From: Pseudomonadota bacterium
GTDB lineage: Bacteria; Desulfobacterota; Desulfobacteria; Desulfobacterales; RPRI01
Assembly (NCBI GenBank): GCA_043825875.1
Contig: JBDRRF010000079.1
Span: 1 to 64,000, forward strand
Length of the DNA stretch: 64,000 bases
Reading direction: 5' to 3'
The notes under the pieces were generated by a model. That model searched no databases and was not told the origin of the DNA. It worked only from the letters and a program-made list of their open reading frames with translations. This document shows positions 164 to 28,210 of this stretch, in pieces. The stretch's first letter is position 1. The number at the start of each line of letters is the position of its first letter. The translations under genes were made by a program, and so were the position numbers.

Positions 164-179
164 TGGCACAACCTGTGCT
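164..179 (+). promoter_or_regulatory. putative sigma54 -24/-12 promoter
   Basis: TGGCACAACCTGTGCT has exact GG-N10-GC spacing, 75 bp upstream of the first ORF of the operon. Confidence 0.65.
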
Positions 180-253: not shown

Positions 254-679
254 ATGGAACATGGAAATAAAATCAAAAAAATCTTAGTTGTAGCTGATGA
301 ATTGGATATACTGATTTTTCTTTCAAATCTATTGCGGGCCGAAGGCTTTGAAGTAGTTGAAGCCGATAATGGTGAACAGGGTTTAGCAAAAGCACGAAAG
401 AATTTGCCTGCCCTTATAATACTTGATGTCATGATGCCAGAAGAATCCGGGATTCAGACTTATCAGGCATTAAAGTATGACAAACGGCTCCAACGTATCC
501 CGGTTATAATGCTTTCGGCAATAAATAAAGAAACTTTTTCCCATTACCAAAAGTTTGAAAGTATAAAGGCAAGGCAAGGGATTCCGGAACCGGAAGCTTT
601 TCTGGAAAAACCGCCGGAAGCAGAAGAACTTATAAATGCCGTGCTTAAATTAATGCCAACGGATAGATATCATGAATAA
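254..679 (+). CDS. single-domain response regulator (receiver only)
   Basis: ILVVADE (first acidic residue is Ala), LDVMMP phospho-Asp, MLSA, FLEKP; no output domain. Confidence 0.9.
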   Translation: MEHGNKIKKILVVADELDILIFLSNLLRAEGFEVVEADNGEQGLAKARKNLPALIILDVMMPEESGIQTYQALKYDKRLQRIPVIMLSAINKETFSHYQKFESIKARQGIPEPEAFLEKPPEAEELINAVLKLMPTDRYHE

Positions 680-2975
680 TCATTCTGTAGATCCGAAACT
701 ATATAGTGAAGTTGCAAAATTCGGAGCAATGGATATGGAAATCTGCATGCAGTGCGGAGCATGCAGTGCATCATGCCCTTTGTCTGAAGGAAATAATCCG
801 TTTCCCCGAAAAATATACCGGTATCTCCAGCTTGGCTTAAAAGACAAGCTGCTGAAATCATCCGTGCCATGGATGTGTTATTACTGCGGCGAATGCAACA
901 AGGAATGCCCCAGAGGAGCAGAACCTGCAGAAACCATGATGGCTGCCCGGCGCTGGTTAACTACTCAATACGACTGGACCGGACTTGCCAAAAAGCTTTA
1001 CCTGTCTACAGCCTGGGAAATCGGTGCATTAGCCTCAGTAGCACTTTTTATTGTTTTACTTTTTGTTTTTTTCCACGGCCCAATAATTACCGATCATGTT
1101 TCGGTAAATACATTCGCACCGGTGATCTGGATTGAAATCGGCGATCTGTTGATGGCAACAATACTTTCCACTTTTCTTCTTTCCAATGCATTCAGGATGT
1201 TTCGATATATAATGGGGGACACAAAAGCACCCTTTATGCTTTATATTAAGGAAGCAAAAACATTTATTTTAAACTTTGCAACACAAAAACGCTGGATAAA
1301 GTGCTCAGATGATAAAAGCCGATGGATGAAACACTTTATCCTTGTAACCGGCTATCTTACCATGATGACACTTATCATTGTTTGTATACGATGGTTTCAG
1401 GTAGATGACAGCAGCTGGCATTTTACAAGTATTTTCGGCTACTATGCAACCGCTGTTCTTCTTTTTATAACAGTGGAAATGTTTTTAAGCCGCTTGAAAA
1501 AGCAGGAAACAATCCACAGATACTCAGAGCTTTCCGACTGGCTTTTTCTGATACTTCTTTTTCTTACAACTTTAACCGGAATATTGATGCATATAGTACG
1601 TCTTGCCGGATGGCCCATGGGAACATATGTAACATATGTTATTCATCTTGCGATTGCAGTTCCAATGCTTGTGATTGAAGTTCCTTTCGGAAAATGGTCC
1701 CACATGTTCTACAGACCGTTGGCTCTGTTTTTATCTGCTGTAAAAGATAAGGCATCAAAGGCATCCAGTATAGATATTGAAGAATTAATTGCAAAAGCCG
1801 GTGAAACATTTATGGTATGCCAGCAGTGCGGAACATGCACCAGCGTATGCCCCGTAAATTTAGTTTCAGATTACAGCCCACGCCGTATTTTGCGCAAACT
1901 TGCATTTGATAACGGAACACAGGAATCTGTCGAAAATGCCGCATGGGATTGTCTTACATGCAATACATGCGGTACAAACTGCCCGCGGGGGATAGACATA
2001 ATAGAAGTCATACGTGCTGTAAGAACTCTCAATATATCTTCCGGCAAAATTCATGAATCACTTAAAGCGCCTCTTGAAAGTCTGAAAAAAAACGGCAACC
2101 CATGGAACGAAGATCCTAAGAAGCGAATTGACTGGACAGGCGATTTAAGTATCGTATCTTTTACACCCGAAAACAAATACTGCCTTTTCACATGTTGCAC
2201 AACGGCTTATACTGCCGAAAACCAAAAAGCAGGACGTGCTTTAGTTCAACTTATGGATCATGCCGGAGTTAATTTCGGCACACTTGGCAATAAAGAAAAT
2301 TGCTGCGGCGATATAGCTCATAAGGCAGGTGCAACCGATACATTTAGTGGGCTTGTCACAAAAAACACAGAGATGTTTTTGCATGAAAACGTAAAAACAA
2401 TACTTATAACATCGCCGCATTGTTTAAACTCCTTTAAAAATAACTACCCCGGTTTAAAGGGTCATACAAACTGTGAACACTATACCGAACTTCTTGAAAG
2501 ACTGATTTTAAAAGGCCGTTTAAAACCTGTTGCCAGAATCGAATCAACGGTTACCTATCACGACCCATGCTATCTGGGCCGATACAATAATATTTATGAA
2601 GCGCCGCGCCGCATACTGCAAAGCATTCCAGGGCTTAAGCTCGTTGAAATGGGAAATAACAGAGAAGGCAGCATTTGCTGCGGCGGATTTGGCACAGACG
2701 CCTGGAATAATTACTACAATAATGGCCGGAAAAGCAACCAGCTTGGTATGTTGCGAATAGAAGAAGCGCTTGATACAGGCGCTGAAATACTTGTTACAGC
2801 ATGCCCGTTTTGTGTTCTTACTCTATATGATGCTGTAGAAAAACTTGGTGTAAAACACCGGATAACCGTTACCGATCCGGCACAATTGCTGCTGCAATCG
2901 GTAAATACAGTATATGAAGTTGATATTACAAATAACATCAAGCCGAGTTATAATAAAGAGGTCGTTTATGCCTGA
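672..2975 (+). CDS. QmoC-like (2x4Fe-4S plus membrane heme b) fused to HdrD-like (2x4Fe-4S plus CCG domains) oxidoreductase
   Basis: CMQCGACSASCP/CYYCGECNKECP, hydrophobic helices with His (KHF, IHLA, WSHMFYRP), second dicluster CQQCGTC/CLTCNTC, ENCCG, YHDPCYLGR, ICCGG, TACPFC. Confidence 0.85.
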   Translation: MNNHSVDPKLYSEVAKFGAMDMEICMQCGACSASCPLSEGNNPFPRKIYRYLQLGLKDKLLKSSVPWMCYYCGECNKECPRGAEPAETMMAARRWLTTQYDWTGLAKKLYLSTAWEIGALASVALFIVLLFVFFHGPIITDHVSVNTFAPVIWIEIGDLLMATILSTFLLSNAFRMFRYIMGDTKAPFMLYIKEAKTFILNFATQKRWIKCSDDKSRWMKHFILVTGYLTMMTLIIVCIRWFQVDDSSWHFTSIFGYYATAVLLFITVEMFLSRLKKQETIHRYSELSDWLFLILLFLTTLTGILMHIVRLAGWPMGTYVTYVIHLAIAVPMLVIEVPFGKWSHMFYRPLALFLSAVKDKASKASSIDIEELIAKAGETFMVCQQCGTCTSVCPVNLVSDYSPRRILRKLAFDNGTQESVENAAWDCLTCNTCGTNCPRGIDIIEVIRAVRTLNISSGKIHESLKAPLESLKKNGNPWNEDPKKRIDWTGDLSIVSFTPENKYCLFTCCTTAYTAENQKAGRALVQLMDHAGVNFGTLGNKENCCGDIAHKAGATDTFSGLVTKNTEMFLHENVKTILITSPHCLNSFKNNYPGLKGHTNCEHYTELLERLILKGRLKPVARIESTVTYHDPCYLGRYNNIYEAPRRILQSIPGLKLVEMGNNREGSICCGGFGTDAWNNYYNNGRKSNQLGMLRIEEALDTGAEILVTACPFCVLTLYDAVEKLGVKHRITVTDPAQLLLQSVNTVYEVDITNNIKPSYNKEVVYA

Positions 2976-5900
2976 TAGAATCGGATTTTATATCTGCCAT
3001 TGCGGCATTAATATAGCCTATAGGGTTCGCGTGAAAGAAGTTGCCGAATATGCGGCTACCTTACCAAATGTTGTGGTTTCACGTGATTACCTGTTTATGT
3101 GTTCAGATCCCGGACAGGAACTTATAGAAAAGGACATTCGAGAACATAATTTAACCCGTGTGATAGTGTCATCATGCTCACCCAGGATGCATGAAAAAAC
3201 GTTTCGCGCCGCATGTCAAAGGGGCGGCCTTAATCCATACAAAGCATTTCATATGGTATGTGTTCGCGAGCATGTTTCATGGGTAACCGAAAACGAAGAT
3301 GAAGCCACCGAAAAAGCAAAAACCCTAGTAAGAGCCGGCATTATGAGAGTTGTCAACCAGCACATACTAACTCCGGCTACGTTTCCGGTGTGCACAAACA
3401 CCCTTGTGGTAGGCGGTGGTATTGCAGGTATGCAGGCATCTCTTGATATATCCAAAGCAGGATATAAAGTATATCTTGTAGAAAGGCAACCTACAGTCGG
3501 CGGGCATATGCTGCAATACGACAAGACATTTCCTACCCTTGACTGTGCGGCCTGTATCGGCACGCCAAAGATGGTTTCAGTAGGTCAGGAGCCGAATATC
3601 AAATTACTCACTTATAGCGAGGTTGAAGATGTTAGCGGTTTTGTCGGCAATTTTAAAGTTAAAGTCAGAAAAAAATCCCGTTTTATTGAAAAAAACTGCA
3701 CCGGCTGCGGTGAGTGCGAAAAAGTTTGCCCGGTTGAATTTACAAATGAGTGGGATGTAAATACTAAAATCAGAAAGGCTATATACCGTCCGTTTCCCCA
3801 GGCAGTCCCTATTACTTATTGTATAGATAAGTACGACAGGGCTCCTTGTGTTCAAACCTGTCCGGCAGGCACAAATGTCCAGGGATATGTGGCTTTGATC
3901 AAATCGGGAAAATATAAAGAAGCCCTGAATCTGATTATGGAGCGCCTGCCTTTGCCAGCAACACTTGGGCGTGTCTGCCCGGCCCCGTGTGAAAATGCCT
4001 GCCGGAGAGGCGAAGTGGATAGCGCTGTTGCTATACGTGACCTGAAGAGATTTGCGGCGGATCAAACGGATATTTCTATGCTGCCCACACCCGATATTAA
4101 GGATCTTGACGACAAAGTGGCGGTTATCGGTTCAGGTCCTGCTGGTCTTACGGCGGCATATTATCTGCGCTTAAAAGGTTACCAAATTACTATCTTTGAA
4201 GCTCTGCCGGTTTTAGGAGGCATGCTTCGTGTAGGTATACCGGATTACCGGCTTCCGCCTGATATTCTTGATAAGGAAATCCAAAACATCCTGCGCCTGG
4301 GTATAGAAGTTCAAACGGAGAAAATATTAGGAATTGATTTTAGCCTTGATGATTTAAAAAGCCAGGGCTTTAAAGCGATTTTTCTCGGAATCGGCGCTCA
4401 TAACAGTCTTAAACTCGGCATTCCCGGTGAAGAAGTTTTAGAGGGTGTTATCGATGCTGTCAAATTTTTAAGAAATGTAAATCTGGGTGTTATAAAAAAG
4501 CCCGGAGACAAGGTCATAATTATCGGTGGCGGCAATGTGGCTATTGATGCTGCAAGATCTGCATTGCGAATAGGTTGCAAACAGGTGGATATTATCTATC
4601 GCCGCAGCCGCGAGCAGATGCCGGCTTATCATGAAGAAATCAGGGATGCGCTGGAAGAAGGAATCAAAATCCATTATCTTACAGCACCAATCTCTATTCG
4701 TGGAAATAACGGGCAAGTTGATGCTGTTGAGTGTATAAAAAACGAACTTGGCGCGCCTGATGCAAGCGGCCGTAGCCGGCCCGTGCCCGTTTCAGGATCG
4801 GAGTTTGTAATTAAGTGTGATACAGTAATACCGGCAATAGGACAAAAGCCTGAAGTAAAATGGCTTATAAAAGATAATCTTGTACAAGTTTCAAAACGAA
4901 ATACCATACATGTTAATCCGCATACCATGCAGACAAACATTCCATACATATTTGGAGGAGGCGATGCAGTCAGCGGGCCTGCAACTGTTGTAGAAGCCGT
5001 ATCCGCTGCCCGGAAAGCAGTTGATGCTATCCATTGTTATATTTGCGGAGATGATCTTGATATTTTTAGCGCAAACTTAGCTTCAAGAAAAGCACCGGGT
5101 CAAAACTGGGCTAAAATACCCCCATTTATCCAAAAAATTGACAAGGTAAACTTGCAGCATCGGGAGGTCAAGGAACGCATTACTTCTTTCAAAGAAGTCA
5201 GCTTAAGATTAGCGGAAGCAGAAGCAATAAATGAGGCTTCGCGTTGTATAAATTGCGGCGGATGCTGTGAATGCAAGCTTTGCGTATCTTCATGCGAAGC
5301 AAAAGCAATTAATCATTTAATGAAAGATGAGATAGAAGATATCGATGTAGGATCAATAATTGTCGCAACCGGTTTCGATCCTTTAAACCCAAGTCCGATG
5401 CATCAGTACGGTTACGGCAAGTATCCAAATGTATTCACCAACCTGGAGTTCGAGCGTCTTTCAAATGCTACGGGACCGACAGGTGGTAAAATCCTTAAAC
5501 GAAATACTTATGACCGTTTGAAGTTTACTGAACCTCCCAAGAGTGTCGCAATCTTACATTGCATAGGAAGCCGCGACATCAATTTCCATGAATACTGTTC
5601 TCGTACCTGCTGTATGTATGCGCTTAAGTATGCCCATCTTATCAAAGACAAGTGCGGACACGATACCGAAGTATACAATTTCTACATCGATATGCGCTGC
5701 TTTGGCAAAGGGTATGAAGAATTTTACAAACGCGTTCAAAGCGAGGGTGTACGCATGGTTCGCGGCAAAGCTTCACGGATTGAAGAAAAAAATGGTCTCC
5801 TGTTAGTAACAGCCGAAGACACACTTTCAGACAGAATATTAAAAATACCTGTTGAAATGGTTATCCTGTGTACTGCTATGGAACCGCGTCCCGATACAAA

Positions 5901-6348
5901 CGAGGTATCGCGAACATTTGGAATAAGCGTCGGAGGTGACGGCTTTTTTCTTGAAGAACATCCGAAACTCGAACCGGTTTCTACTGCTGCAAGTGGTATT
6001 TTTCTGGCAGGAACATGCCAGGGTCCAAAGGATATTCCGGATACCGTTGCACAGGCAAAAGGAGCTGCGGCTGAGGCTCTGGCCTTAAGTGCTTCGGGAA
6101 AAGTATCAGTATCTCCTATGATTTCACATATAGATCCGGACATATGTATAGGCTGCCGGATTTGCATAGATCTATGCGCCTATTCGGCAATTGAATTTAA
6201 TGAATTAAAAAGAATAAGCGAGGTTAATGAAGCCGTATGTAAAGGCTGCGGAAGTTGTTCTGGCTACTGCCCAAGCGGTGCCGCCCAGATCCGGCATTTT
6301 ACAGGCAAGCAGATTTTTTCGGAAATAGACGGCTTGCTGGCAGGTTAA
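2968..6348 (+). CDS. hdrA: HdrA-like flavoprotein with inserted GltD-like NAD(P)H oxidoreductase module (HdrL type)
   Basis: Start at ATG 2968 after GAGGT; YICHCG, VGGGIAG, KTFPTLDC, GRVCPAPCENACRR, GSGPAG, GGGNVA..YRR, EFERL, CSRTCCMYALK, C-terminal ferredoxin. Confidence 0.9.
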   Translation: MPDRIGFYICHCGINIAYRVRVKEVAEYAATLPNVVVSRDYLFMCSDPGQELIEKDIREHNLTRVIVSSCSPRMHEKTFRAACQRGGLNPYKAFHMVCVREHVSWVTENEDEATEKAKTLVRAGIMRVVNQHILTPATFPVCTNTLVVGGGIAGMQASLDISKAGYKVYLVERQPTVGGHMLQYDKTFPTLDCAACIGTPKMVSVGQEPNIKLLTYSEVEDVSGFVGNFKVKVRKKSRFIEKNCTGCGECEKVCPVEFTNEWDVNTKIRKAIYRPFPQAVPITYCIDKYDRAPCVQTCPAGTNVQGYVALIKSGKYKEALNLIMERLPLPATLGRVCPAPCENACRRGEVDSAVAIRDLKRFAADQTDISMLPTPDIKDLDDKVAVIGSGPAGLTAAYYLRLKGYQITIFEALPVLGGMLRVGIPDYRLPPDILDKEIQNILRLGIEVQTEKILGIDFSLDDLKSQGFKAIFLGIGAHNSLKLGIPGEEVLEGVIDAVKFLRNVNLGVIKKPGDKVIIIGGGNVAIDAARSALRIGCKQVDIIYRRSREQMPAYHEEIRDALEEGIKIHYLTAPISIRGNNGQVDAVECIKNELGAPDASGRSRPVPVSGSEFVIKCDTVIPAIGQKPEVKWLIKDNLVQVSKRNTIHVNPHTMQTNIPYIFGGGDAVSGPATVVEAVSAARKAVDAIHCYICGDDLDIFSANLASRKAPGQNWAKIPPFIQKIDKVNLQHREVKERITSFKEVSLRLAEAEAINEASRCINCGGCCECKLCVSSCEAKAINHLMKDEIEDIDVGSIIVATGFDPLNPSPMHQYGYGKYPNVFTNLEFERLSNATGPTGGKILKRNTYDRLKFTEPPKSVAILHCIGSRDINFHEYCSRTCCMYALKYAHLIKDKCGHDTEVYNFYIDMRCFGKGYEEFYKRVQSEGVRMVRGKASRIEEKNGLLLVTAEDTLSDRILKIPVEMVILCTAMEPRPDTNEVSRTFGISVGGDGFFLEEHPKLEPVSTAASGIFLAGTCQGPKDIPDTVAQAKGAAAEALALSASGKVSVSPMISHIDPDICIGCRICIDLCAYSAIEFNELKRISEVNEAVCKGCGSCSGYCPSGAAQIRHFTGKQIFSEIDGLLAG

Positions 6349-6406
6349 TATATCCGGAGCATATTATACCATATAAACTTCAGACGAATTGTTTTTCAAA
6401 ATGATG

Positions 6407-6482
6407 CAAGTATTCAAAAGTTCGGGGTTAAAACATAATCAGATTTCACTTGAACCCTTGACCCCTCGAATCCTTGAATCCT
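6407..6482. repeat. octamer-based palindromic intergenic repeat (TTGAACCC/TCGAATCC family)
   Basis: cttgaacccttgacccctcgaatccttgaatcc; related copies at 43793 and 61303. Confidence 0.7.
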
Positions 6483-6507
6483 AATAATTACAGAAAGGAA
6501 CAAAAAT

Positions 6508-6930
6508 ATGAGCGAGTTTGAACCGACAATTGTGGCTTTCTTTTGCAACTGGTGTACTTACACTGCTGCTGATTTAGCCGGAACTTCACGTCTGTCATAC
6601 CCTCCTAATATAAAAATCATCCGGGTAATGTGCACCGGTATGGTTGACCCGCAATATATCATCAAAGCCTTTTTGGAAGGCGCAGACGGAGTGCTGGTCA
6701 GCGGCTGCCATCCGGGCGACTGCCATTATATTAACGGAAATTATAAAGCACGCAGGCGAATCAAGCTGTTAAAAGAAATTCTTCCTCAATTCGGATTTGA
6801 TTCCAAAAGATTAAGATTAACATGGATAGGAGCAAGTGACGGAATTCGTCTGGCGGAAATTATGCGTGAACTTGTATCACAAATCAAAGAACTGGGCCCC
6901 GGCCAAGCAAAATTGAGTATGGTGATTTAG
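6508..6930 (+). CDS. mvhD: MvhD/FlpD [2Fe-2S] subunit
   Basis: FFCNWCTYTAADLAG, RVMCTG, SGCHPGDCHY. Confidence 0.95.
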   Translation: MSEFEPTIVAFFCNWCTYTAADLAGTSRLSYPPNIKIIRVMCTGMVDPQYIIKAFLEGADGVLVSGCHPGDCHYINGNYKARRRIKLLKEILPQFGFDSKRLRLTWIGASDGIRLAEIMRELVSQIKELGPGQAKLSMVI

Positions 6931-6948
6931 AATATATTCGGAGGGAAT

Positions 6949-8094
6949 ATGACGGTTACGGCAAAAATTAATATTAAAAATCAGGATATATCGGAATCCA
7001 TAAGAAGTTTTCTGGAAGATATTCTTAAAACCGGAATTGTTCAGGCAATGCTTGTGCCTCAGCATCTCCCGATGAAAAAAATGGTAATGCCCACGCTGGT
7101 AACTGATCCAAAACATTTAGAAGGTGTAGATACTATTGCTCCTGCATTTCCAATGACTGCGGCAACAATTGCCGCCAAACTCACACGCAAGCCAATGGGC
7201 GGTAAAATAGCAGCAGTATTGCGCCCCTGTGAGATCAGAGCATTTATTGAACTGGTTAAACTGAACCAGGCCCAAAAAGATGACATTATCTTGATAAGCG
7301 TAGATTGTTTAGGCGCATTTTCAAATAATGACTATTTAAAATTCTTTAGTCAAAAAACAAAAGAAGCAAGCACCATGTTTTATAAAAAGGTTATGGATGA
7401 AAATGCTGTTGAAATAGAAGGAGTAAAGCTTGCCGCAGCCTGTATGGCATGTGAACATCCGGTTTCCGAAAACGCCGATATCCAGATCGGCTTATACGGG
7501 ATGAATACCGATGAATCCTTGCTAATTAAGGCTCAAACACAAGCCGGAGATAATATATTAAAGCAACTTAACTTAAGCGCTGCAAATGAACCTGCGGGCA
7601 GACAGAACGCCATCAGCAGCCTGATTAAACAGCGCACTGAATACAAAGACAAAATGATCGCCAAAACAAGGGAAGCAACCGATAGCCTGGAAAAAATATC
7701 CGAGTATTTTGCTTCCTGCGTCAATTGCTATAATTGCCGGGTGGCTTGCCCTGTTTGCTATTGCAAAGAATGTGTTTTTGTTACGGATGTATTTAACCAT
7801 GATCCTTCCCAGTATTTAAGCTGGGCTAAACGGAAAGGGATCATTAAAATGCCTACCGATACCCTTTTTTATCATATCACGCGTCTGACTCATATGAGTA
7901 CGGCTTGTGTCGGCTGTGGCCAGTGCTCAAACGCCTGCCCGAACGATATCCCGGTTATGGAGCTGTTTCGCTCCATAGGAGATATCACCCAAAAGGCTTT
8001 TGATTACCAGGCAGGTAAAAGTATTGAACAAAGACCTCCTCTGTCGATATTTAATAAGGACGAATATCAAGAGGTGGTAGGAATAAACGATTAA
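6949..8094 (+). CDS. FdhB/FrhB-like iron-sulfur subunit
   Basis: LRPCEIRA, VDCLG, CVNCYNCRVACPVCYCKEC, CVGCGQCSNACP. Confidence 0.8.
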   Translation: MTVTAKINIKNQDISESIRSFLEDILKTGIVQAMLVPQHLPMKKMVMPTLVTDPKHLEGVDTIAPAFPMTAATIAAKLTRKPMGGKIAAVLRPCEIRAFIELVKLNQAQKDDIILISVDCLGAFSNNDYLKFFSQKTKEASTMFYKKVMDENAVEIEGVKLAAACMACEHPVSENADIQIGLYGMNTDESLLIKAQTQAGDNILKQLNLSAANEPAGRQNAISSLIKQRTEYKDKMIAKTREATDSLEKISEYFASCVNCYNCRVACPVCYCKECVFVTDVFNHDPSQYLSWAKRKGIIKMPTDTLFYHITRLTHMSTACVGCGQCSNACPNDIPVMELFRSIGDITQKAFDYQAGKSIEQRPPLSIFNKDEYQEVVGIND

Positions 8095-8103
8095 GAGGTA
8101 TTT

Positions 8104-11100
8104 ATGACCAAAAAATACGGCAAGGCTCTGGTTGTAGGCGCTGGAATAAGCGGACTTCGCGCCGCTTTGGATCTGGCAGAATACGGCTATGGCGTCACGC
8201 TGATAGACAAGGCACCGAATACAGGCGGCATATTAAGACAGCTGGATTATCAATTCCCAACGGATACTTGTGGAATGTGCAAGATGCTTCCGCTGTACAA
8301 TCGAGACAAAGGTTCACAATATTGTCTGCGTAAAGGTTTGTTTCATAAAAATATTGAAATACTTCTTTCAACACAACTTACATCGGTTGAAGGCGAAGCA
8401 GGACAATTTCAGGCAACGGTAAGACAGCATTCTAACTGGGTTGATCCAAATCATTGCACAGGCTGCGGTTATTGCGCCAATGTCTGTCCGGTAGTGGTGC
8501 CTGACGAATTTAACGAAAATATCGGAACTCATAAAGCAATTTATCTGCCTGTTCCTCATGCCATACCGAATCCGTATATAATTGATCTTTCATTATGCAC
8601 ACATTGCGGAGCCTGCATATCAGCTTGTCCGACAGGTGCAATTAATTTGCCTCAGGATAAACGAAAATCCTTTCATATACTGGTAGTTGATGACGAACTG
8701 ATTATGCGTGATTCTTTAAAAGAATGGTTAATAGACGAAGGGTTTTGGGTTGATATGGCAGCTTCCGGCACCGAAGCTCTCGATAAACTGAAAACACAGG
8801 CTTACGATTTAATGCTTTTAGATATCATGATGCCAGACATGGATGGAGTACAAGTACTTCAAAAAGCTAAAGAGATTTTTGATGATCTGAAAGTAATTAT
8901 GATGACCGCTTACGCAACCGTGGAAACCGCTGTCGAAGCCATGAAAATCGGGGCTTTGGACTATCTGGTCAAGCCGTTTGATCCTGATGTTTTAATCCCG
9001 ATGATTGCAAAGATATTTCAGGATACCGCAGCCGTTGTCGAAGAAAGGCAGCTTGACGTAGGCGCAATCGTGCTTTGTGGCGGAACCGGTTTTTTCAATC
9101 CAAAAAACGAAAAGAACTTGTTTGGTTATAAAGCTTATCCCAATGTTTTAACAAGCCTTGAATTTGAGCGCATGATAAGCGGAACCGGCCCATGCAATGG
9201 TACTCTGTTACGGCCTTTCGATAATAAACCTGTAAAAAAAATAGCATGGATACAGTGTGTCGGATCTCGCGATTTGCAAACTAATGCGGATTTTTGTTCA
9301 GGAATATGCTGCATGTTTTCAATCAAGGAGGCGCTGCTTGCTAAAAGATCAAGTACGCAAGATATAGAAACAACTATCTTTTATATGGACTTAAGAACAT
9401 ACGGAAAAACATTTCAGCGTTACCGTGAACAGGCCCAAAATATATATGATGTTAATTTTGTAAGAGCAAAAGTTCATTCGGTTTTTCCGGATACAGCAAC
9501 CGGAGATTTAATTGTCCGCAATATGGATATCTCCGGCAATTATAAAGAAGAAAGGTTTGATATGCTGGTGCTTGCTGTTGGCCAGAGACCGGCGCAAGGA
9601 ACATCTGAAATGGCGGAATTGCTGGGATTAGATTTAAATCAATGGGGATTCGGAAAAACCGAGCCGTTTTCGCTAACTAAAACCGGCATTGACGGAATAA
9701 CATTCGGGGGTTCTTTTACAGGGCTCAAAGACATCAGCGATTCGCTTATACAAGCGTCATCGGCAGCTGCTAATGCTTCACGGGTAATTCATTCAAAAGG
9801 AGGAGAGCTTTCATTAGAAGATAAGAAAAGTCCACCACAAAATGCCCTGGCAAAAGCAATCCCTAAAATTCTGACTGTAATTTGTACTTGCGGTAACAGG
9901 TTATCGAAATCAGCAGATTTAGATTATATCAGCAAGCGGCTTAAATCCGACCCCTTAGTTGAGAATATTGAGTTTTTGGAACAACTTTGCACAAGGCAAT
10001 CATTTGATACTCTTATTAATATAATTAATAAGTCAAATCCAAACAGACTTCTTATCGCAACATGTCTTCCCTATGTATATAAATTTAAGATAAATGTGCT
10101 TTGTAAACAAACAGGCCTTAATCCTGACTTAATTTCTATAGTTGATATAAATACCGATATATCACATTTGCTTCGCCCGGATTCCTGCGATGAAATACAA
10201 CAATATAATATTTCAGACACAAAAATATCACATGCTGTCGAACAGCGGCTTTTGTCCGTAATTGAAACCGGTATAGCAAAGCTTAAATGGGCGAATATGT
10301 CTGAAACTCAAACAATTCCGATTTGCCAAAAAGCCCTTGTAGTAGGCGGAGGGATAGCCGGTATGACAACTGCTCTGGCAATTGCCGACCATGGCTTTGA
10401 AGTGGATATCATAGAGCAGACCGAAAAATTTGGAGGCAACCTGAATTGGCTTAAAAAAACATTGGACGGATATTCTACAAACGAGTTGCTGGAAAAAACT
10501 CTTGATCTTGTTCAAAAACATCCGAAGATCAATACTTATACCCAATCAACAGTAACCGGTTCTTCCGGTGAAATAGGAAATTTTAGTACTGATATAAAAG
10601 ATTCCGAAAATCAGGTTCATACATTACAACATGGCGTTACCGTTTTAGCCACAGGAGGAAGACAGGCAGATACCCGGTCTTATACTTACGGAGCAAATCC
10701 ATCTGTTATCACCCAGAAAGAATTGGAACAAAAACTTTCGGATAATACTATTGATCCTGAAAAACTAAATTCCGTGGTAATGATCCAATGCGTTGATTCC
10801 AGGCAGGAACCGCGTAATTACTGTAGCCGCATCTGCTGTGCGAATGCCTTAAAACATGCGCTTTTTCTCAAAGAAAAAAACCCAGCTATCTCGGTATATA
10901 TTCTTTACAGAGACCTTATGGTATACGGTTTTCACGAAACATATTATACACAGGCCAGAAATGCGGGCATAATTTTTATACAGTATGACACTGATAACAA
11001 ACCCATTGTTAATGACGAAAACGATAAAACTCAAATCTCGGCATTTGAACCGATACTTAAAAAACAACTGCAAATTGAAACCGATCTTGTGGTTCTGGCT

Positions 11101-11571
11101 ACAGGCATTGTTCCGAATATGTCCCGTGATTTGGCGGAAGCACTCGGTGCATCGCTTGATTGTGATAATTTTTTTCAGGAAGCAGAATCAAAATGGAGGC
11201 CGGTCGATTCACTCAAAGAAGGAGTATTTGCCTGCGGTCTGGCCCATTCTCCCCGTAATATTGCCGAAACTATTGCCACAGCAGAAGCAGCTGCTCAAAG
11301 AGCACTTGTAATTTTAAGCCATAAAAATCTGGCCGGAGGAAAGATTAGTGCAAAAGTACATCACAGTATTTGCGCTTTATGCGAACAATGTATTGACGCA
11401 TGCCCATACGGTGCGCGTACCGTAGATTATGAAAACGAACAAATTATTATCAATCCATGCATATGCCAGGGCTGCGGGACATGTGTTGCGGTATGCCCTA
11501 ATTGCGCTTCCACATTAGATGGATTCGCCACGCAGCAAATATTTGCAACAATCGATGCAGTTATAAATTAA
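8104..11571 (+). CDS. hdrA: double-module HdrA-like flavoprotein with in-frame response-regulator receiver domain
   Basis: VGAGISG, QFPTDTCGMC, ferredoxin motifs, receiver (ILVVDDE..LLDIMMP..MTAY..KPF), EFERM, CSGICCMFSIK, second module VGGGIAG..CSRICCANALK, C-terminal ferredoxin. Confidence 0.9.
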   Translation: MTKKYGKALVVGAGISGLRAALDLAEYGYGVTLIDKAPNTGGILRQLDYQFPTDTCGMCKMLPLYNRDKGSQYCLRKGLFHKNIEILLSTQLTSVEGEAGQFQATVRQHSNWVDPNHCTGCGYCANVCPVVVPDEFNENIGTHKAIYLPVPHAIPNPYIIDLSLCTHCGACISACPTGAINLPQDKRKSFHILVVDDELIMRDSLKEWLIDEGFWVDMAASGTEALDKLKTQAYDLMLLDIMMPDMDGVQVLQKAKEIFDDLKVIMMTAYATVETAVEAMKIGALDYLVKPFDPDVLIPMIAKIFQDTAAVVEERQLDVGAIVLCGGTGFFNPKNEKNLFGYKAYPNVLTSLEFERMISGTGPCNGTLLRPFDNKPVKKIAWIQCVGSRDLQTNADFCSGICCMFSIKEALLAKRSSTQDIETTIFYMDLRTYGKTFQRYREQAQNIYDVNFVRAKVHSVFPDTATGDLIVRNMDISGNYKEERFDMLVLAVGQRPAQGTSEMAELLGLDLNQWGFGKTEPFSLTKTGIDGITFGGSFTGLKDISDSLIQASSAAANASRVIHSKGGELSLEDKKSPPQNALAKAIPKILTVICTCGNRLSKSADLDYISKRLKSDPLVENIEFLEQLCTRQSFDTLINIINKSNPNRLLIATCLPYVYKFKINVLCKQTGLNPDLISIVDINTDISHLLRPDSCDEIQQYNISDTKISHAVEQRLLSVIETGIAKLKWANMSETQTIPICQKALVVGGGIAGMTTALAIADHGFEVDIIEQTEKFGGNLNWLKKTLDGYSTNELLEKTLDLVQKHPKINTYTQSTVTGSSGEIGNFSTDIKDSENQVHTLQHGVTVLATGGRQADTRSYTYGANPSVITQKELEQKLSDNTIDPEKLNSVVMIQCVDSRQEPRNYCSRICCANALKHALFLKEKNPAISVYILYRDLMVYGFHETYYTQARNAGIIFIQYDTDNKPIVNDENDKTQISAFEPILKKQLQIETDLVVLATGIVPNMSRDLAEALGASLDCDNFFQEAESKWRPVDSLKEGVFACGLAHSPRNIAETIATAEAAAQRALVILSHKNLAGGKISAKVHHSICALCEQCIDACPYGARTVDYENEQIIINPCICQGCGTCVAVCPNCASTLDGFATQQIFATIDAVIN

Positions 11572-11605
11572 TACAATTATTTAATACGGAGATAATATTA
11601 ATAGT

Positions 11606-13099
11606 ATGTTAAAAGAAACCGGCGCAAATTGGTCTGAATTAAATATACATACAAGTGAATACCAGACTTTGTTTGAGCTGGTTCCCTGTCTTATAACATT
11701 ACAGGACAAAGAGTTCAGGCTTATTCGCTACAATCATTTGTTTGAGGATCATTTCCATCCCGAACCAGGTGATTACTGCTACCAGGCCTATAAGAAAAGA
11801 GATTCAAGGTGCGAGAAATGTCTGGTGGCTATGACTTTCGATGATGGAAAATCGCATTATGGAGAAGAATCCAGTCTTAACAATGACGGTACATTTACAT
11901 ATTGGATAGCGCATACATCTCCAGTAAAAAACGAAAAAAATGAAATTATCGCTGTTATGGAAGTTTGTCTTGATATAACGCATAGAAAAGAACTTGAAGA
12001 AAACCTGATAAAATCTGAAAAAAAATATTATTCAATATTCAATAATATTCCCAATCCTCTTTTTGTTCTTGATATAAATTCGCTTAACATCCTTGATTGT
12101 AATGAAAGAGTCACATCGGTTTACAGATTTTTGAAAGAAGAAATAATTAATACATCCTTCATGGATCTGTTTATAAAAAAAGAAAAAGTTGATTATACTT
12201 TTAAGATGAAAGCCTATTCAAAATTAAACCGGGTAAAACAATTAACAAAAAGCGGAGAAACTATCATAGTTAATATAGGAATTACTCCATCTGAATATCC
12301 GGGACAGAAAGTTTTACTTGTAGTAACAGATGATATAACAAAACGTCTCGAGGTGGAGCAACAAATAATACAGGCAGGTAAAATGGCAACTCTTGGAGAA
12401 ATGGCAACAGGAATAGCACATGAACTCAACCAACCTCTATCTGTTATTAAAACGGTCAGTAGTTTTTTTATCCGGAAAATAAATGACAATGAGTTGATAG
12501 ATCAAACCACTCTTAACAATATGCTGGTAAAAGTCGACAATAATGTTGATCGGGCATCCCGGATTATTAACCATTTGAGAAATTTCGCCAGAAAATCAGA
12601 AATAGATTTTGAAAAGGTGCAGGTTAATGAAGAACTTGAAAGAGCGTTTTCAATTTTTGCCCAACATCTCAGGGTAAGAGGTATTGAAGTCTTATGGGAT
12701 ATTGACAAGAACTTGCCAATGATTATGGCTGACCCTCAAAGACTCGAACAGGTTTTTATAAACCTATTAATCAACGCAAGGGATGCTATTGAAGAAAAAT
12801 ACAGGAATATGCATTCTGCCGAAGCTGAAAAGACAATCCGTTTAAACACATATATGGATAATAAGAATGTTGTCATTGAAGTATCTGATACCGGAACAGG
12901 AATTCCTGAGGCTATATCCGATAAAATATTTGAACCTTTTTTTACTACAAAGGAAGCCGGAAAGGGCACCGGCCTGGGTTTATCCATCAGTTACGGGATA
13001 ATCAAGGATTTTGGAGGAACAATATGTTCCAGATCCGAAGAGGGTCAGGGAGCATGTTTTATAATTACTCTTCCTGTACAGGATAATAAAAATGGATAA
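11606..13099 (+). CDS. cytoplasmic PAS-PAS sensor histidine kinase
   Basis: [10 protein letters not shown]-box, [25 protein letters not shown]; no transmembrane helices. Confidence 0.95.
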
Positions 13100-14216
13100 T
13101 CAAATACTGCTGGTTGATGACGAAGAAGATATTCGCGATGTTTTAGGCGTTTATCTGAAAGACAAGGGCTACAGTACACTTCTTGCAGAAAACGGCAATG
13201 AGGCTTTAAATATTTTCAATGAACATGCTCCGCCTATAGTTATTTCAGATATCAAAATGCCTGGTATAGACGGAATTGAACTTCTTAAAAAAATCAAGCA
13301 GGATAAGCCTGACACTGAAATTATAATGATAACCGGCCATGGTGATATGGAACTTGCCATTGCAAGTTTACAAGATCATGCGGCGGATTTTATAACAAAG
13401 CCTATAAACGTAAATATTTTGGATGTGGCTCTTAAGAAAGTAGAAGAAAAAATTATAGCACGAAGGCAGTTAAGAGAATATACCGAAAATCTGGAAAAAT
13501 TGGTTAAGGAAAAATCCGAACTGCAAAGTCATTTGTCTTCTTTAGGACTTATGTTAGGTTCCGTTTCTCATGGCATCAAAGGTCTGCTTACTTGTCTGGA
13601 TGCCGGTATGTACCAGGTAGAATCCGGGTTTTCGAAAGAAAATTCAGCCGAAATTGAAGAAGGCTGGAAAATAGTCAAACTCATGGTTGACCGTATACGA
13701 AGAATGGTTTTAGATATTCTGTATTATGCGAAAGAAAGAGATCTGAACTGGGAAAAAGTGGATGCGTTAAGTTTTTCCGCAGAAGTTGCAGATATTATGG
13801 AGAGAAAGATTACATCTGACGATATTGAATTCATACGTGATTTTGATGATACCCTGGGAAACTTTGAAATCGATACAGGTTGCATAAATTCCGCATTGAT
13901 CAATATTTTCGAAAACGCAGTTGATGCATGCATCAAAGACAAGTCAAATGAAAAACACAAAATCATATATAAGGTATCACAGGATAAGAATAATATCTAT
14001 TTTGAAGTAAGCGATGATGGAACAGGAATGGATGAAGATACACGCAGCAAGCTGTTTACCCTGTTTTTTTCATCCAAAGGCAGCAAGGGAACCGGGCTGG
14101 GTCTTTTTATTTCAAATAAAATAATAGAGCAGCACGGAGGTTCAATCAAGGTGTTTTCAGTGCCGGGACAAGGTTCAAAATTTACTATAAATATCCCGAA
14201 AATAACGGCTTCATAA
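13092..14216 (+). CDS. hybrid receiver plus histidine kinase
   Basis: LLVDDE, SDIKMP, ITKP; SHGIKG H-box, NAVDA, DDGTG, GTGLGL. Confidence 0.9.
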   Translation: MDNQILLVDDEEDIRDVLGVYLKDKGYSTLLAENGNEALNIFNEHAPPIVISDIKMPGIDGIELLKKIKQDKPDTEIIMITGHGDMELAIASLQDHAADFITKPINVNILDVALKKVEEKIIARRQLREYTENLEKLVKEKSELQSHLSSLGLMLGSVSHGIKGLLTCLDAGMYQVESGFSKENSAEIEEGWKIVKLMVDRIRRMVLDILYYAKERDLNWEKVDALSFSAEVADIMERKITSDDIEFIRDFDDTLGNFEIDTGCINSALINIFENAVDACIKDKSNEKHKIIYKVSQDKNNIYFEVSDDGTGMDEDTRSKLFTLFFSSKGSKGTGLGLFISNKIIEQHGGSIKVFSVPGQGSKFTINIPKITAS

Positions 14217-14235: not shown

Positions 14236-14679
14236 TCAGTAATACTGCTTATATGCTTTCTTCCATGGGTCACGGCGAAGTTCTTTAACATTGGCAAGGG
14301 CCAGATACAGCGCTCCTACAGCCAATTCCGCACAATGGAAATGATCTTCAGGCAGGGTTTCTAAATATTGAGCCACATCTTCAGGTATAACATCCCATGC
14401 CTTATCAAGCGTTTTACCTTCTATCATATCAATAATCGTATTAGCGCATGCAACAGTATTAAGGCAGCCGTTAACGTTATAGGAGGCAGTTTCGATAATA
14501 TCACCACGGGTTTTTAAATACAATTCAACGGTATCTCCGCAATCGCCCTCTTTTTTTCCATATCCATCAGGATTTTTTATTATTTCATTTTTATCGATTC
14601 TAAAAGCCATTTCAAGGTATTTAATAGAATGGTTTTGCCAAAAGTTCGATATTTCCGACTTATCTTTTTTTATTTCCAT
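14236..14679 (-). CDS. NifU/IscU-like Fe-S scaffold domain protein
   Basis: GDCGDTV, VNGC..TVAC, HCAELA. Confidence 0.85.
   Translation of the reverse strand: MEIKKDKSEISNFWQNHSIKYLEMAFRIDKNEIIKNPDGYGKKEGDCGDTVELYLKTRGDIIETASYNVNGCLNTVACANTIIDMIEGKTLDKAWDVIPEDVAQYLETLPEDHFHCAELAVGALYLALANVKELRRDPWKKAYKQYY

Positions 14680-28133: not shown

Positions 28134-28210
<77 letters not shown>

Follow-up and report, generated by a model that had tools for sequence, protein, structure and literature searches.

Within a 64,000-nucleotide (nt) stretch of DNA from a member of the Desulfobacterales (contig JBDRRF010000079.1 of assembly GCA_043825875.1; the whole stretch is called the window below), we found a gene for a fused heterodisulfide reductase (Hdr) subunit A, HdrA, that carries a two-component receiver domain inside its enzyme fold. 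We named the 1155-amino-acid (aa) product HdrA-REC. The receiver is intact and conserved, it lies at the low-potential exit of a BamE-like HdrA, and it is present in roughly half of the sampled genomes of this major sulfate-reducer order. The anatomy, the conservation and the gene neighbourhood of HdrA-REC were all observed directly. The protein and its parts are given here by window coordinates (FAD, flavin adenine dinucleotide; TrxR, thioredoxin reductase):

8104..11571, + strand: HdrA-REC, a fused two-module (type II, BamE-like) HdrA with a built-in receiver, 1155 aa (open frame, Pfam, alignment to 5ODC_A, AlphaFold2, Foldseek).
8434..8661, + strand: inserted ferredoxin domain of module 1 (aa 111-186) with two four-cysteine motifs (Pfam Fer4_7 at 117-179; aligns to 5ODC_A through residue 313).
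8662..9039, + strand: receiver insertion and its linkers (aa 187-312); the Pfam domain covers aa 192-301 (nt 8677-9006) and the phospho-acceptor D240 is encoded at nt 8821-8823.
9040..9813, + strand: second half of TrxR-like FAD domain 1, with E355, K408 and cluster cysteines 385, 398, 402 and 403 (aligns to 5ODC_A 318-511).
9856..11553, + strand: module 2, with an N-terminal-type cysteine domain (aa 585-700), TrxR-like domain 2 (aa 740-1075) and a C-terminal ferredoxin domain (aa 1080-1150) (5ODC_A stretches 4-104 and 476-649; Pfam).

We compared HdrA-REC by phmmer with 5ODC_A, the HdrA of Methanothermococcus thermolithotrophicus, and obtained an E-value of 4.4e-109 over four stretches. Residues 7-185 aligned to chain positions 145-313 and residues 316-510 to positions 318-511, while residues 587-687 matched the N-terminal domain of HdrA and residues 983-1153 its C-terminal part. 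Because the alignment resumes on either side of the receiver, the receiver interrupts the HdrA fold cleanly and in frame, where the inserted ferredoxin domain ends and returns the chain to TrxR-like FAD domain 1. Receiver-less relatives have only ~8-12 residues at this site. An earlier model reading of the DNA letters alone (the sequence-only reading) had placed the receiver between the ferredoxin insert and the second half of the first FAD domain of a two-module HdrA, and the alignment confirmed this placement. The two HdrA units are unequal: module 1 has the inserted ferredoxin domain and is without the N- and C-terminal domains, and module 2 has both terminal domains and is without the ferredoxin insert. 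Receiver-less relatives of ~1010-1050 aa have the same two-TrxR layout. An AlphaFold2 model built with 120 relatives had a mean predicted local distance difference test score (pLDDT) of 92.7 and a predicted template modelling score (pTM) of 0.92. In this model the receiver adopted a (beta-alpha)5 fold with a pLDDT of about 88-96, its elements spanning residues 191-308 (strands 191-195, 215-219, 236-240, 263-268 and 286-289; helices 199-211, 222-231, 248-258, 273-282 and 294-308). The structure prediction and the domain search, both proposed earlier as checks, thus agreed on the insertion. Foldseek returned HdrA chains as the top matches to the model (8rvy_A at E 2e-46, 5odc_A and 7bkb_A), with a TM-score of 0.93 to 8rwn_A, normalised to the target.

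The receiver scored 105.8 bits against Pfam Response_reg (PF00072; cut-off 30.2 bits, E 1.7e-30) and covered profile positions 1-110 of 111. The claim of a complete receiver at ~8671-9020 with all canonical residues therefore held: VVDDE begins at aa 194 (D196, D197), LLDIMMP at 238 (D240), MTAY at 267 (T268) and VKPF at 289 (K290). We aligned 168 relatives (120 best database matches, 40 genome loci and 8 representatives at 50% identity) and found that the set D196/D197/D240/T268/K290 was kept in 166 of them, in line with the expectation that orthologues would conserve these residues. One of the two exceptions, L033, is an open reading frame (ORF) fragment of a gene with an in-frame TGA and does not contain the region. 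The other, the representative protein P0130, reads D-P-D-G-H at the five positions and no longer gives a Pfam match at 1e-8; it keeps the domain and has lost the receiver chemistry, and so constitutes a natural pseudo-receiver control. The aromatic switch residue Y287 was kept in 162 of 162 sequences. Among the same number of sequences the receiver was the best-conserved segment of the protein, with a mean identity to the window protein of 0.75, followed by the first half of TrxR-like domain 1 (TrxR1a) at 0.73, the ferredoxin domains, TrxR1b and TrxR2 at 0.60-0.63 and the N-terminal-type domain at 0.42. Within the receiver, the frequency of the top residue was 0.93-1.00 in the active-site loops, 0.96 in alpha4 and 0.86 in alpha1, and lowest in alpha2 and alpha5 (0.67-0.68). 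In receivers generally, alpha1 is the usual kinase-docking helix and alpha4 forms part of the usual output face. The inserted domain was most like receivers of the AtoC/ZraR type. Judged by these residues, the receiver looks functional, that is, a canonical CheY-type domain predicted to be phosphorylatable.

To the earlier concern that the fusion could be an assembly chimera, the distribution gives a clear answer. The best 120 matches in a collection of 5.8 billion proteins all contained PF00072 and were 63-96% identical to HdrA-REC over aa 1-600; one belonged to an 8.03-Mb complete genome that its source calls Desulfonema magnum, and the other named sources were metagenome-assembled genomes of Desulfobacterales or Desulfobacteraceae. 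A match to aa 1-599 at E <= 1e-100 was present in 137 of the 301 sampled genomes of the order (107 of 221 high-quality genomes, 76 of 155 genera), and nearly all of these 137 matches ran contiguously across the receiver, complete single-contig genomes included. An assembly chimera was ruled out by these two results. Receiver-bearing forms also occurred in other families of the phylum (L092-L095). When the genome contigs were queried with aa 133-399, mostly receiver-less HdrA or unrelated receivers were returned, at 29-63% identity. We then built a quick, unrooted FastTree tree from 120 chosen fused HdrA sequences after taking the receiver columns out of the alignment. One clade (support 90) was made up of the 47 receiver-bearing rows and the receiver-less P0129; the receiver-less P0134 was its sister, and two state changes suffice to explain the pattern. 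This topology fits one insertion of the receiver and at least one later loss. On the evidence of these sequences, the HdrA-REC fusion is old and widespread.

Outside the window, the genome from which it comes has a gene for a receiver-less fused HdrA of ~1019 aa (G000:C109:10971-13964, - strand), with one in-frame TGA. Several orthologues of this receiver-less protein (in G065, G040 and G255) likewise have an in-frame TGA, and these may be selenocysteine codons.

HdrA-REC proteins are annotated publicly as 'response regulator', 'FAD-dependent oxidoreductase' or 'heterodisulfide reductase subunit A'. A full-text literature search, which left most subscription journals uncovered, returned no description of a receiver inside HdrA. 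The accessible part of the Desulfobacterium autotrophicum genome paper (PMC2702500) has 'response regulator' and 'histidine kinase' among the genes drawn beside its hdr loci, and its text is silent on a fusion.

The host enzyme carries the residues expected of a bifurcating HdrA. As had been stated from the sequence, EFER (aa 353) and the CCMxxxK motif (CCMFSIK, aa 402-408) are retained. In module 1, C56, C59, E355, K408, C385, C398, C402 and C403 were kept in all 163 full-length relatives; in module 2, C896, C907, C911 and C912 were kept in 163 of 163, E875 in 149 and K917 in 158. The inserted ferredoxin domain with its two [4Fe-4S] motifs is found in module 1 only; in solved relatives this domain is a mobile exit for low-potential electrons. 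Its cysteines C118, C165, C168, C171 and C175 were invariant in a 12-sequence alignment (A1); in a 120-sequence alignment (A2) only C118 and C175 were invariant and the rest were kept in at least 90%. Two texts describe the published systems used for comparison, a 2025 survey of archaeal HdrA (PMC12054007) and a 2026 cryo-EM preprint on BamE, a subunit of the class II benzoyl-CoA reductase of Geobacter metallireducens (10.64898/2026.04.10.717634). The survey uses HdrA E356 and K409 as markers of bifurcation, and E355 and K408 of HdrA-REC are their equivalents. In BamE, the first TrxR domain holds the bifurcating FAD and Lys280, with the Cys59-Cys62 pair nearby; the inserted ferredoxin domain is the low-potential exit, which electrons reach through a conformational change that brings a cluster distance down from 23 to 12 Å (10.64898/2026.04.10.717634). 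By the HdrA and BamE markers, the module that holds the receiver is therefore the bifurcating one, and the receiver sits at the foot of its low-potential arm. HdrA-REC scored below the NCBIfam equivalog cut-offs for coenzyme B-coenzyme M (CoB-CoM) HdrA (667.5 against 1100 bits for NF041778, 528.4 against 1400 for NF040770 and 520.3 against 1300 for NF041891), and since it did so we classed it as HdrA-like, of the type II or BamE-like kind, and not as a CoB-CoM HdrA.

HdrA-REC belongs to a run of eight + strand genes arranged head to tail at 254-14216. The window starts at the first base of its contig (C79 of a 4.77-Mb genome in 118 contigs), so the readable sequence begins at position 1. The other members of the run and the motif in front of it are:

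164..179, + strand: sigma-54-type promoter motif TGGCAC-N5-GTGCT, 90 nt 5' of the first gene, with one mismatch to the sigma-54 consensus.
254..679, + strand: stand-alone receiver RECsolo, 141 aa (Pfam Response_reg E 1.1e-17), with the acidic pocket A-D-E instead of D-D-E.
672..2975, + strand: HdrD-like protein, 767 aa, with ferredoxin-type clusters and two CCG domains, equivalent to a fused HdrC and HdrB (Pfam CCG E 2e-28, Fer4_8 E 3.1e-20).
2914..6348, + strand: HdrL, an HdrA with an inserted GltD/NfnB-like NAD(P)H module, 1144 aa (Pfam Pyr_redox_2 at 401-699, Fer4_20 at 308-385; NCBIfam HdrA2 773 bits, PRK12771 536 bits).
6508..6930, + strand: MvhD-type [2Fe-2S] adaptor, 140 aa (Pfam FlpD E 4.1e-55).
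6949..8094, + strand: FrhB/FdhB-like iron-sulfur protein, 381 aa (Pfam FrhB_FdhB_C E 1.1e-7 and Fer4 motifs).
11606..13099, + strand: HK1, a soluble PAS_4-PAS_9-HisKA-HATPase kinase, 497 aa, with the phospho-histidine H272 (Pfam).
13092..14216, + strand: receiver-kinase hybrid (receiver, DHp-like helix, HATPase), 374 aa (Pfam Response_reg E 2.3e-30, HATPase_c E 7.9e-23).

Pfam thus bore out the prediction of a PAS-PAS kinase (11606-13099) and a receiver-kinase hybrid (13092-14216) directly downstream of HdrA-REC; the start of the hybrid gene overlaps the stop of HK1 by 8 nt. The operon holds three receivers, namely the stand-alone one (254-679), the one inserted in HdrA and that of the hybrid. 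The absence of a DNA-binding regulator, also predicted, was upheld, as Pfam found no DNA-binding domain in any gene of the operon (254-14216).

The gene complement of the operon resembles that of the Bam system. Like HdrA-REC, BamE consists of two fused HdrA units in one polypeptide with an inserted ferredoxin domain, and its flavin lysine and cysteine pair in the first TrxR domain correspond to K408 and C56/C59, as matched through the text of the paper and HdrA numbering; an MvhD-type adaptor and a fused HdrBC-like CCG subunit accompany it and are both encoded in the window operon as well (10.64898/2026.04.10.717634). BamE differs in having no receiver, and the accessible text describes no kinases; its partners are BamGHI and BamBC, whereas HdrL and an FdhB-like protein are found here. 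Its second FAD site is without the bifurcation hallmarks, with Gln in place of Lys, while in HdrA-REC and its relatives K917 (158 of 163) and E875 are mostly kept. In archaeal type II HdrA, two TrxR domains of different HdrA classes are combined and the gene clusters with mvhD and fdhB, the same arrangement as in the window (PMC12054007). According to that survey, the type II and III HdrA of methane-metabolising archaea have never been studied biochemically. Relative to the HdrA of the methanogen HdrABC-MvhAGD complex and its relatives (PDB 5ODC, 8RVY/8RVU and 7BKB), HdrA-REC has the same fold and cofactor motifs, but it is fused instead of homodimeric, has one ferredoxin arm per pseudo-dimer and carries the receiver. 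Partnership with MvhD and an HdrB/HdrC-type CCG protein is seen in the gene neighbourhood only; on this basis, HdrA-REC is likely the flavoprotein core of a soluble Hdr-type complex with HdrL, MvhD, the FdhB-like protein and the HdrBC-like CCG protein as its likely partners.

To determine how constant this neighbourhood is, we analyzed a 17-kb stretch for each of 40 receiver-bearing genes, drawn from 40 genomes and chosen for long contigs; the set is neither random nor independent. HdrL, MvhD and FdhB-like genes lay 5' of HdrA-REC at 39 of the 40 loci, and HdrC-like and HdrB-like genes lay 3' of it, or a fused HdrD-like gene 5' as in the window, at 38. A homologue of the stand-alone receiver was present at 29 loci, an HK1-type kinase directly 3' of HdrA-REC at 24 and a same-strand kinase of some kind within the stretch at 33. 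The receiver-kinase hybrid was found at 12 or more of the 40 loci, a lower bound because many stretches end before its position. The ~760 aa of a typical HK1 orthologue elsewhere include a HAMP domain and additional N-terminal sequence, and the window's genus has a shorter, probably soluble form of 497-503 aa. The phospho-histidine H272 was invariant in 25 of 25 orthologues, and so were C28, C58, C69 and C72 of the first PAS domain (aa 23-129, window 11672-11992). The four invariant cysteines suggest a putative metal or iron-sulfur redox-sensing site in PAS_4.

As a control we examined 20 loci of receiver-less fused HdrA, seven of them with the HdrL-MvhD-FdhB-like-HdrA gene order of the window. 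In five (L072-L075 and L077), two stand-alone receivers and a kinase lay downstream; of the remaining two, one had a kinase on the other strand and one had no kinase in the stretch. The idea that kinases occur only where the receiver is inserted was ruled out by these five loci. Since two-component genes accompany the complex with or without the insertion, the wider idea that the Hdr complex is a target of receivers without another output is strengthened. The downstream kinases had been put forward as candidate cognate kinases of the inserted receiver. The association itself stood, as the 33 of 40 related loci attest; adjacency alone does not assign the kinases to this receiver, because receiver-less loci have them as well.

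We also considered that the inserted receiver might be a captured copy of the neighbouring stand-alone receiver (a 'Rosetta stone' arrangement). The stand-alone receivers beside receiver-less HdrA scored 61-92 bits against the window's stand-alone receiver, as a family of their own, and 24-49 bits or no match (3 of 13) against HdrA-REC, which ruled this out. The stand-alone family is fast-evolving and tied to the operon type, with an extended region between beta4 and beta5. Its acidic pocket is variable, reading A-D-E in the window and G-D, S-E, H-E or V-E elsewhere, and in other genomes two copies follow the receiver-less HdrA.

Over one common set of 20 loci, pairwise identity was 0.885 for the phospho-histidine helix of HK1, 0.70 for the inserted receiver and 0.38 for the stand-alone receiver, and the receiver of the hybrid stood at 0.70 (9 loci). 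HK1 was most like AtoS/ZraS. The matched conservation levels, together with the AtoS-like and AtoC-like best matches of kinase and receiver, weakly point to HK1 serving the inserted receiver, the receiver of the hybrid, or both.

From the receiver chemistry, its position and its neighbours, we propose that the built-in receiver, once phosphorylated, changes how electrons flow at the ferredoxin arm, a reading that we regard as evenly poised between right and wrong. Both the kinase that phosphorylates the receiver and the effect of phosphorylation are what we infer here. A kinase encoded in the operon would phosphorylate D240; HK1, whose cysteine-rich PAS domain may sense the redox state, would be the best candidate, and the hybrid may act as a relay. 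The usual rearrangement of T268, Y287 and alpha4 would then shift the position or the accessibility of the ferredoxin arm, and low-potential electron flow would be tuned or gated post-translationally. In a stronger form of this proposal, which we hold to be possible but doubtful, receiver phosphorylation would physically gate the mobile ferredoxin arm, and the cysteine-rich, possibly iron-sulfur PAS kinase would switch the low-potential output on or off within seconds.

Several observations weigh against phosphorylation control of the arm. The receiver has degenerated in the P0130 lineage, and the receiver-less P0129 is nested in the receiver-bearing clade; the enzyme is thus evidently able to work without a phosphorylatable receiver. 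In 7 of the 40 loci the fetched stretch shows no same-strand kinase, and the kinases and stand-alone receivers of the five receiver-less loci show that a kinase neighbour need not mean an inserted substrate. With three receivers and two kinases in the operon, other wirings are possible. HK1 belongs with the NtrB/AtoS kinases, and with 39 sigma-54 activators encoded in the genome a transcriptional partner elsewhere is possible. The dispensability of phospho-control implied by P0130 and P0129 fits a regulatory add-on.

The direction of signalling could be the reverse of the one we propose. The redox state of the flavin or the clusters would then set the rate at which the receiver is phosphorylated or dephosphorylated, and the enzyme, as a phosphate sink or reporter, would shift the balance of a branched relay that runs from HK1 to the inserted receiver, the receiver of the hybrid and the stand-alone receiver. 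The enzyme is the only output domain among the operon's receivers and kinases, the receiver-kinase hybrid encoded directly downstream could read such a competition, and only a few residues separate the inserted receiver from an iron-sulfur domain. In addition, alpha1 of the inserted receiver and alpha1 of the hybrid's receiver share an (I/V)-R-D-x-L core, so one kinase plausibly serves both. The conservation of alpha4 and the invariance of T268 and Y287 are nevertheless the pattern of a receiver that drives an output, although a sink is still compatible with it, and no sequence feature ties the redox state of the clusters to the acidic pocket. We judged reverse signalling to be unlikely.

The insertion site itself brings up another role for the receiver. 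BLASTP of HdrL against HdrA-REC aligned HdrL 164-319 to aa 9-178 and HdrL 806-1047 to aa 313-550. Because these flanks coincide with those of the receiver, the ~485-aa GltD module of HdrL occupies the receiver's site in the neighbouring protein. In other fused relatives (P0153, P0162 and P0202) the N-terminal unit contains a GltD module or additional ferredoxin domains. In archaeal type III HdrA a foreign GltD module lies close to the inserted ferredoxin domain, and the survey suggested that it bars ferredoxin from the arm (PMC12054007). The accessible text of that survey of 1,152 archaeal HdrA sequences has no occurrence of the word 'receiver'. Compared with the archaeal types II and III, the inserted domain of HdrA-REC is a signalling and not a redox domain, and its hosts are bacteria of a sulfate-reducer-type order. 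By analogy with GltD in HdrL, the main task of the receiver could be assembly or docking, whether or not it is phosphorylated: it would dimerise the complex, or cover the ferredoxin-docking face and so redirect electrons to a fixed partner. Use of the same site by other inserted domains agrees with such a role, as does retention of the domain in the degenerate P0130 lineage, and the confident whole-protein model (pTM 0.92, receiver pLDDT about 88-96) suggests fixed packing over a free tether. A purely structural role would have no need of the full phospho-acceptor set and the invariant active-site loops, however, and the receiver has been lost at least once, in P0129, so it is not needed for folding. 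We consider a mainly structural receiver quite unlikely.

The sigma-54 motif in front of the operon led to the transcriptional context. Motifs of the class TGGCA[CT]-N5-NTGC[AT] were present within 350 nt 5' of the stand-alone receiver gene at 18 of 30 loci, and only 23 matches occurred in the 1.39 Mb of strand-bases from all 41 loci. Proteins with the GAFTGA signature were encoded in 18 of the 40 stretches, and sigma-54 activators were the only DNA-binding regulators found beside such operons. We examined 12 of the adjacent activators: 10 were PAS-AAA-HTH_8 proteins without a receiver, and 2 were NtrC-type proteins with one (L050 and L054). Operon transcription is thus probably set by an activator that senses its signal directly. 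Since 10 of the 12 adjacent activators have no receiver, the kinases are left without an evident transcriptional target, and they probably act other than through transcription. This context is in line with the non-transcriptional role inferred in the sequence-only reading, without proving it. It is very unlikely in our view that transcription is the main target of the kinases, reached through an NtrC-type activator encoded elsewhere that drives the operon's sigma-54 promoter, with the built-in receiver as a side branch or decoy of little effect on the enzyme. The conserved sigma-54 motif, the likeness of HK1 to AtoS/ZraS/NtrB-type kinases, the number of activators in the genome and the two receiver-bearing neighbours speak for it. 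Against it, most adjacent activators have no receiver, none of the genome's 39 lies on the window's contig, and a decoy role does not account for a receiver better conserved than any other segment of the protein.

HdrA-REC relates to two known kinds of protein, type II HdrA and response regulators with enzymatic outputs. In regulators of the latter kind (the CheB, PleD and RpfG type) a terminal receiver is linked to an enzyme. HdrA-REC resembles them in having a canonical receiver and an enzyme on the same polypeptide, which implies direct post-translational control by a histidine kinase. It differs from them in that its receiver is internal (between aa 186 and 313), inside the enzyme fold, and in that its output enzyme is an iron-sulfur flavoprotein of energy metabolism. 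The full-text search found no response regulator with a receiver inserted inside such an enzyme. New to the present analysis are the insertion site shared with HdrL, the context of sigma-54 and receiver-less activators, the control with receiver-less operons, the element-wise conservation of the receiver and the four PAS cysteines of HK1.

Electron bifurcation sets how anaerobes split scarce energy between ferredoxin reduction and exergonic acceptors, and to our knowledge the post-translational regulation of bifurcating enzymes is largely unknown. If phosphorylation does physically gate the ferredoxin arm, as in the stronger form of our proposal, HdrA-REC would give the first example in which a two-component system directly controls an energy-converting redox enzyme rather than gene expression or motility. 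Confirmation of control by the receiver would also enlarge the outputs of two-component systems by a new class and give bioenergetics a new principle of regulation. The system offers a testable handle in a single aspartate (D240), a soluble kinase (HK1) and natural controls, both receiver-less and degenerate-receiver relatives.

Scans for other signals in the window added little. A sigma-70 promoter scan gave 42 sites, the level of shuffled sequence (43.9), and there were 24 terminator-like sites, somewhat more than the 14.0 of shuffles (standard deviation 4.0); neither class marked an interpretable operon boundary. An Rfam scan of the 64-kb window gave a single match, a tRNA at 28137-28210 (- strand), outside the operon. 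A gene for a NifU-like iron-sulfur scaffold (14236-14679, - strand) converges on the end of the operon, 20 nt past the stop of the hybrid gene. Lastly, we noted that HdrC and HdrB are fused into an HdrD-like gene of 765-773 aa before HdrL in the window's genus and a few others (672-2975 in the window), and that most loci have separate HdrC-like and HdrB-like genes after HdrA-REC, as in the example that we compared (L062:11916-13405).

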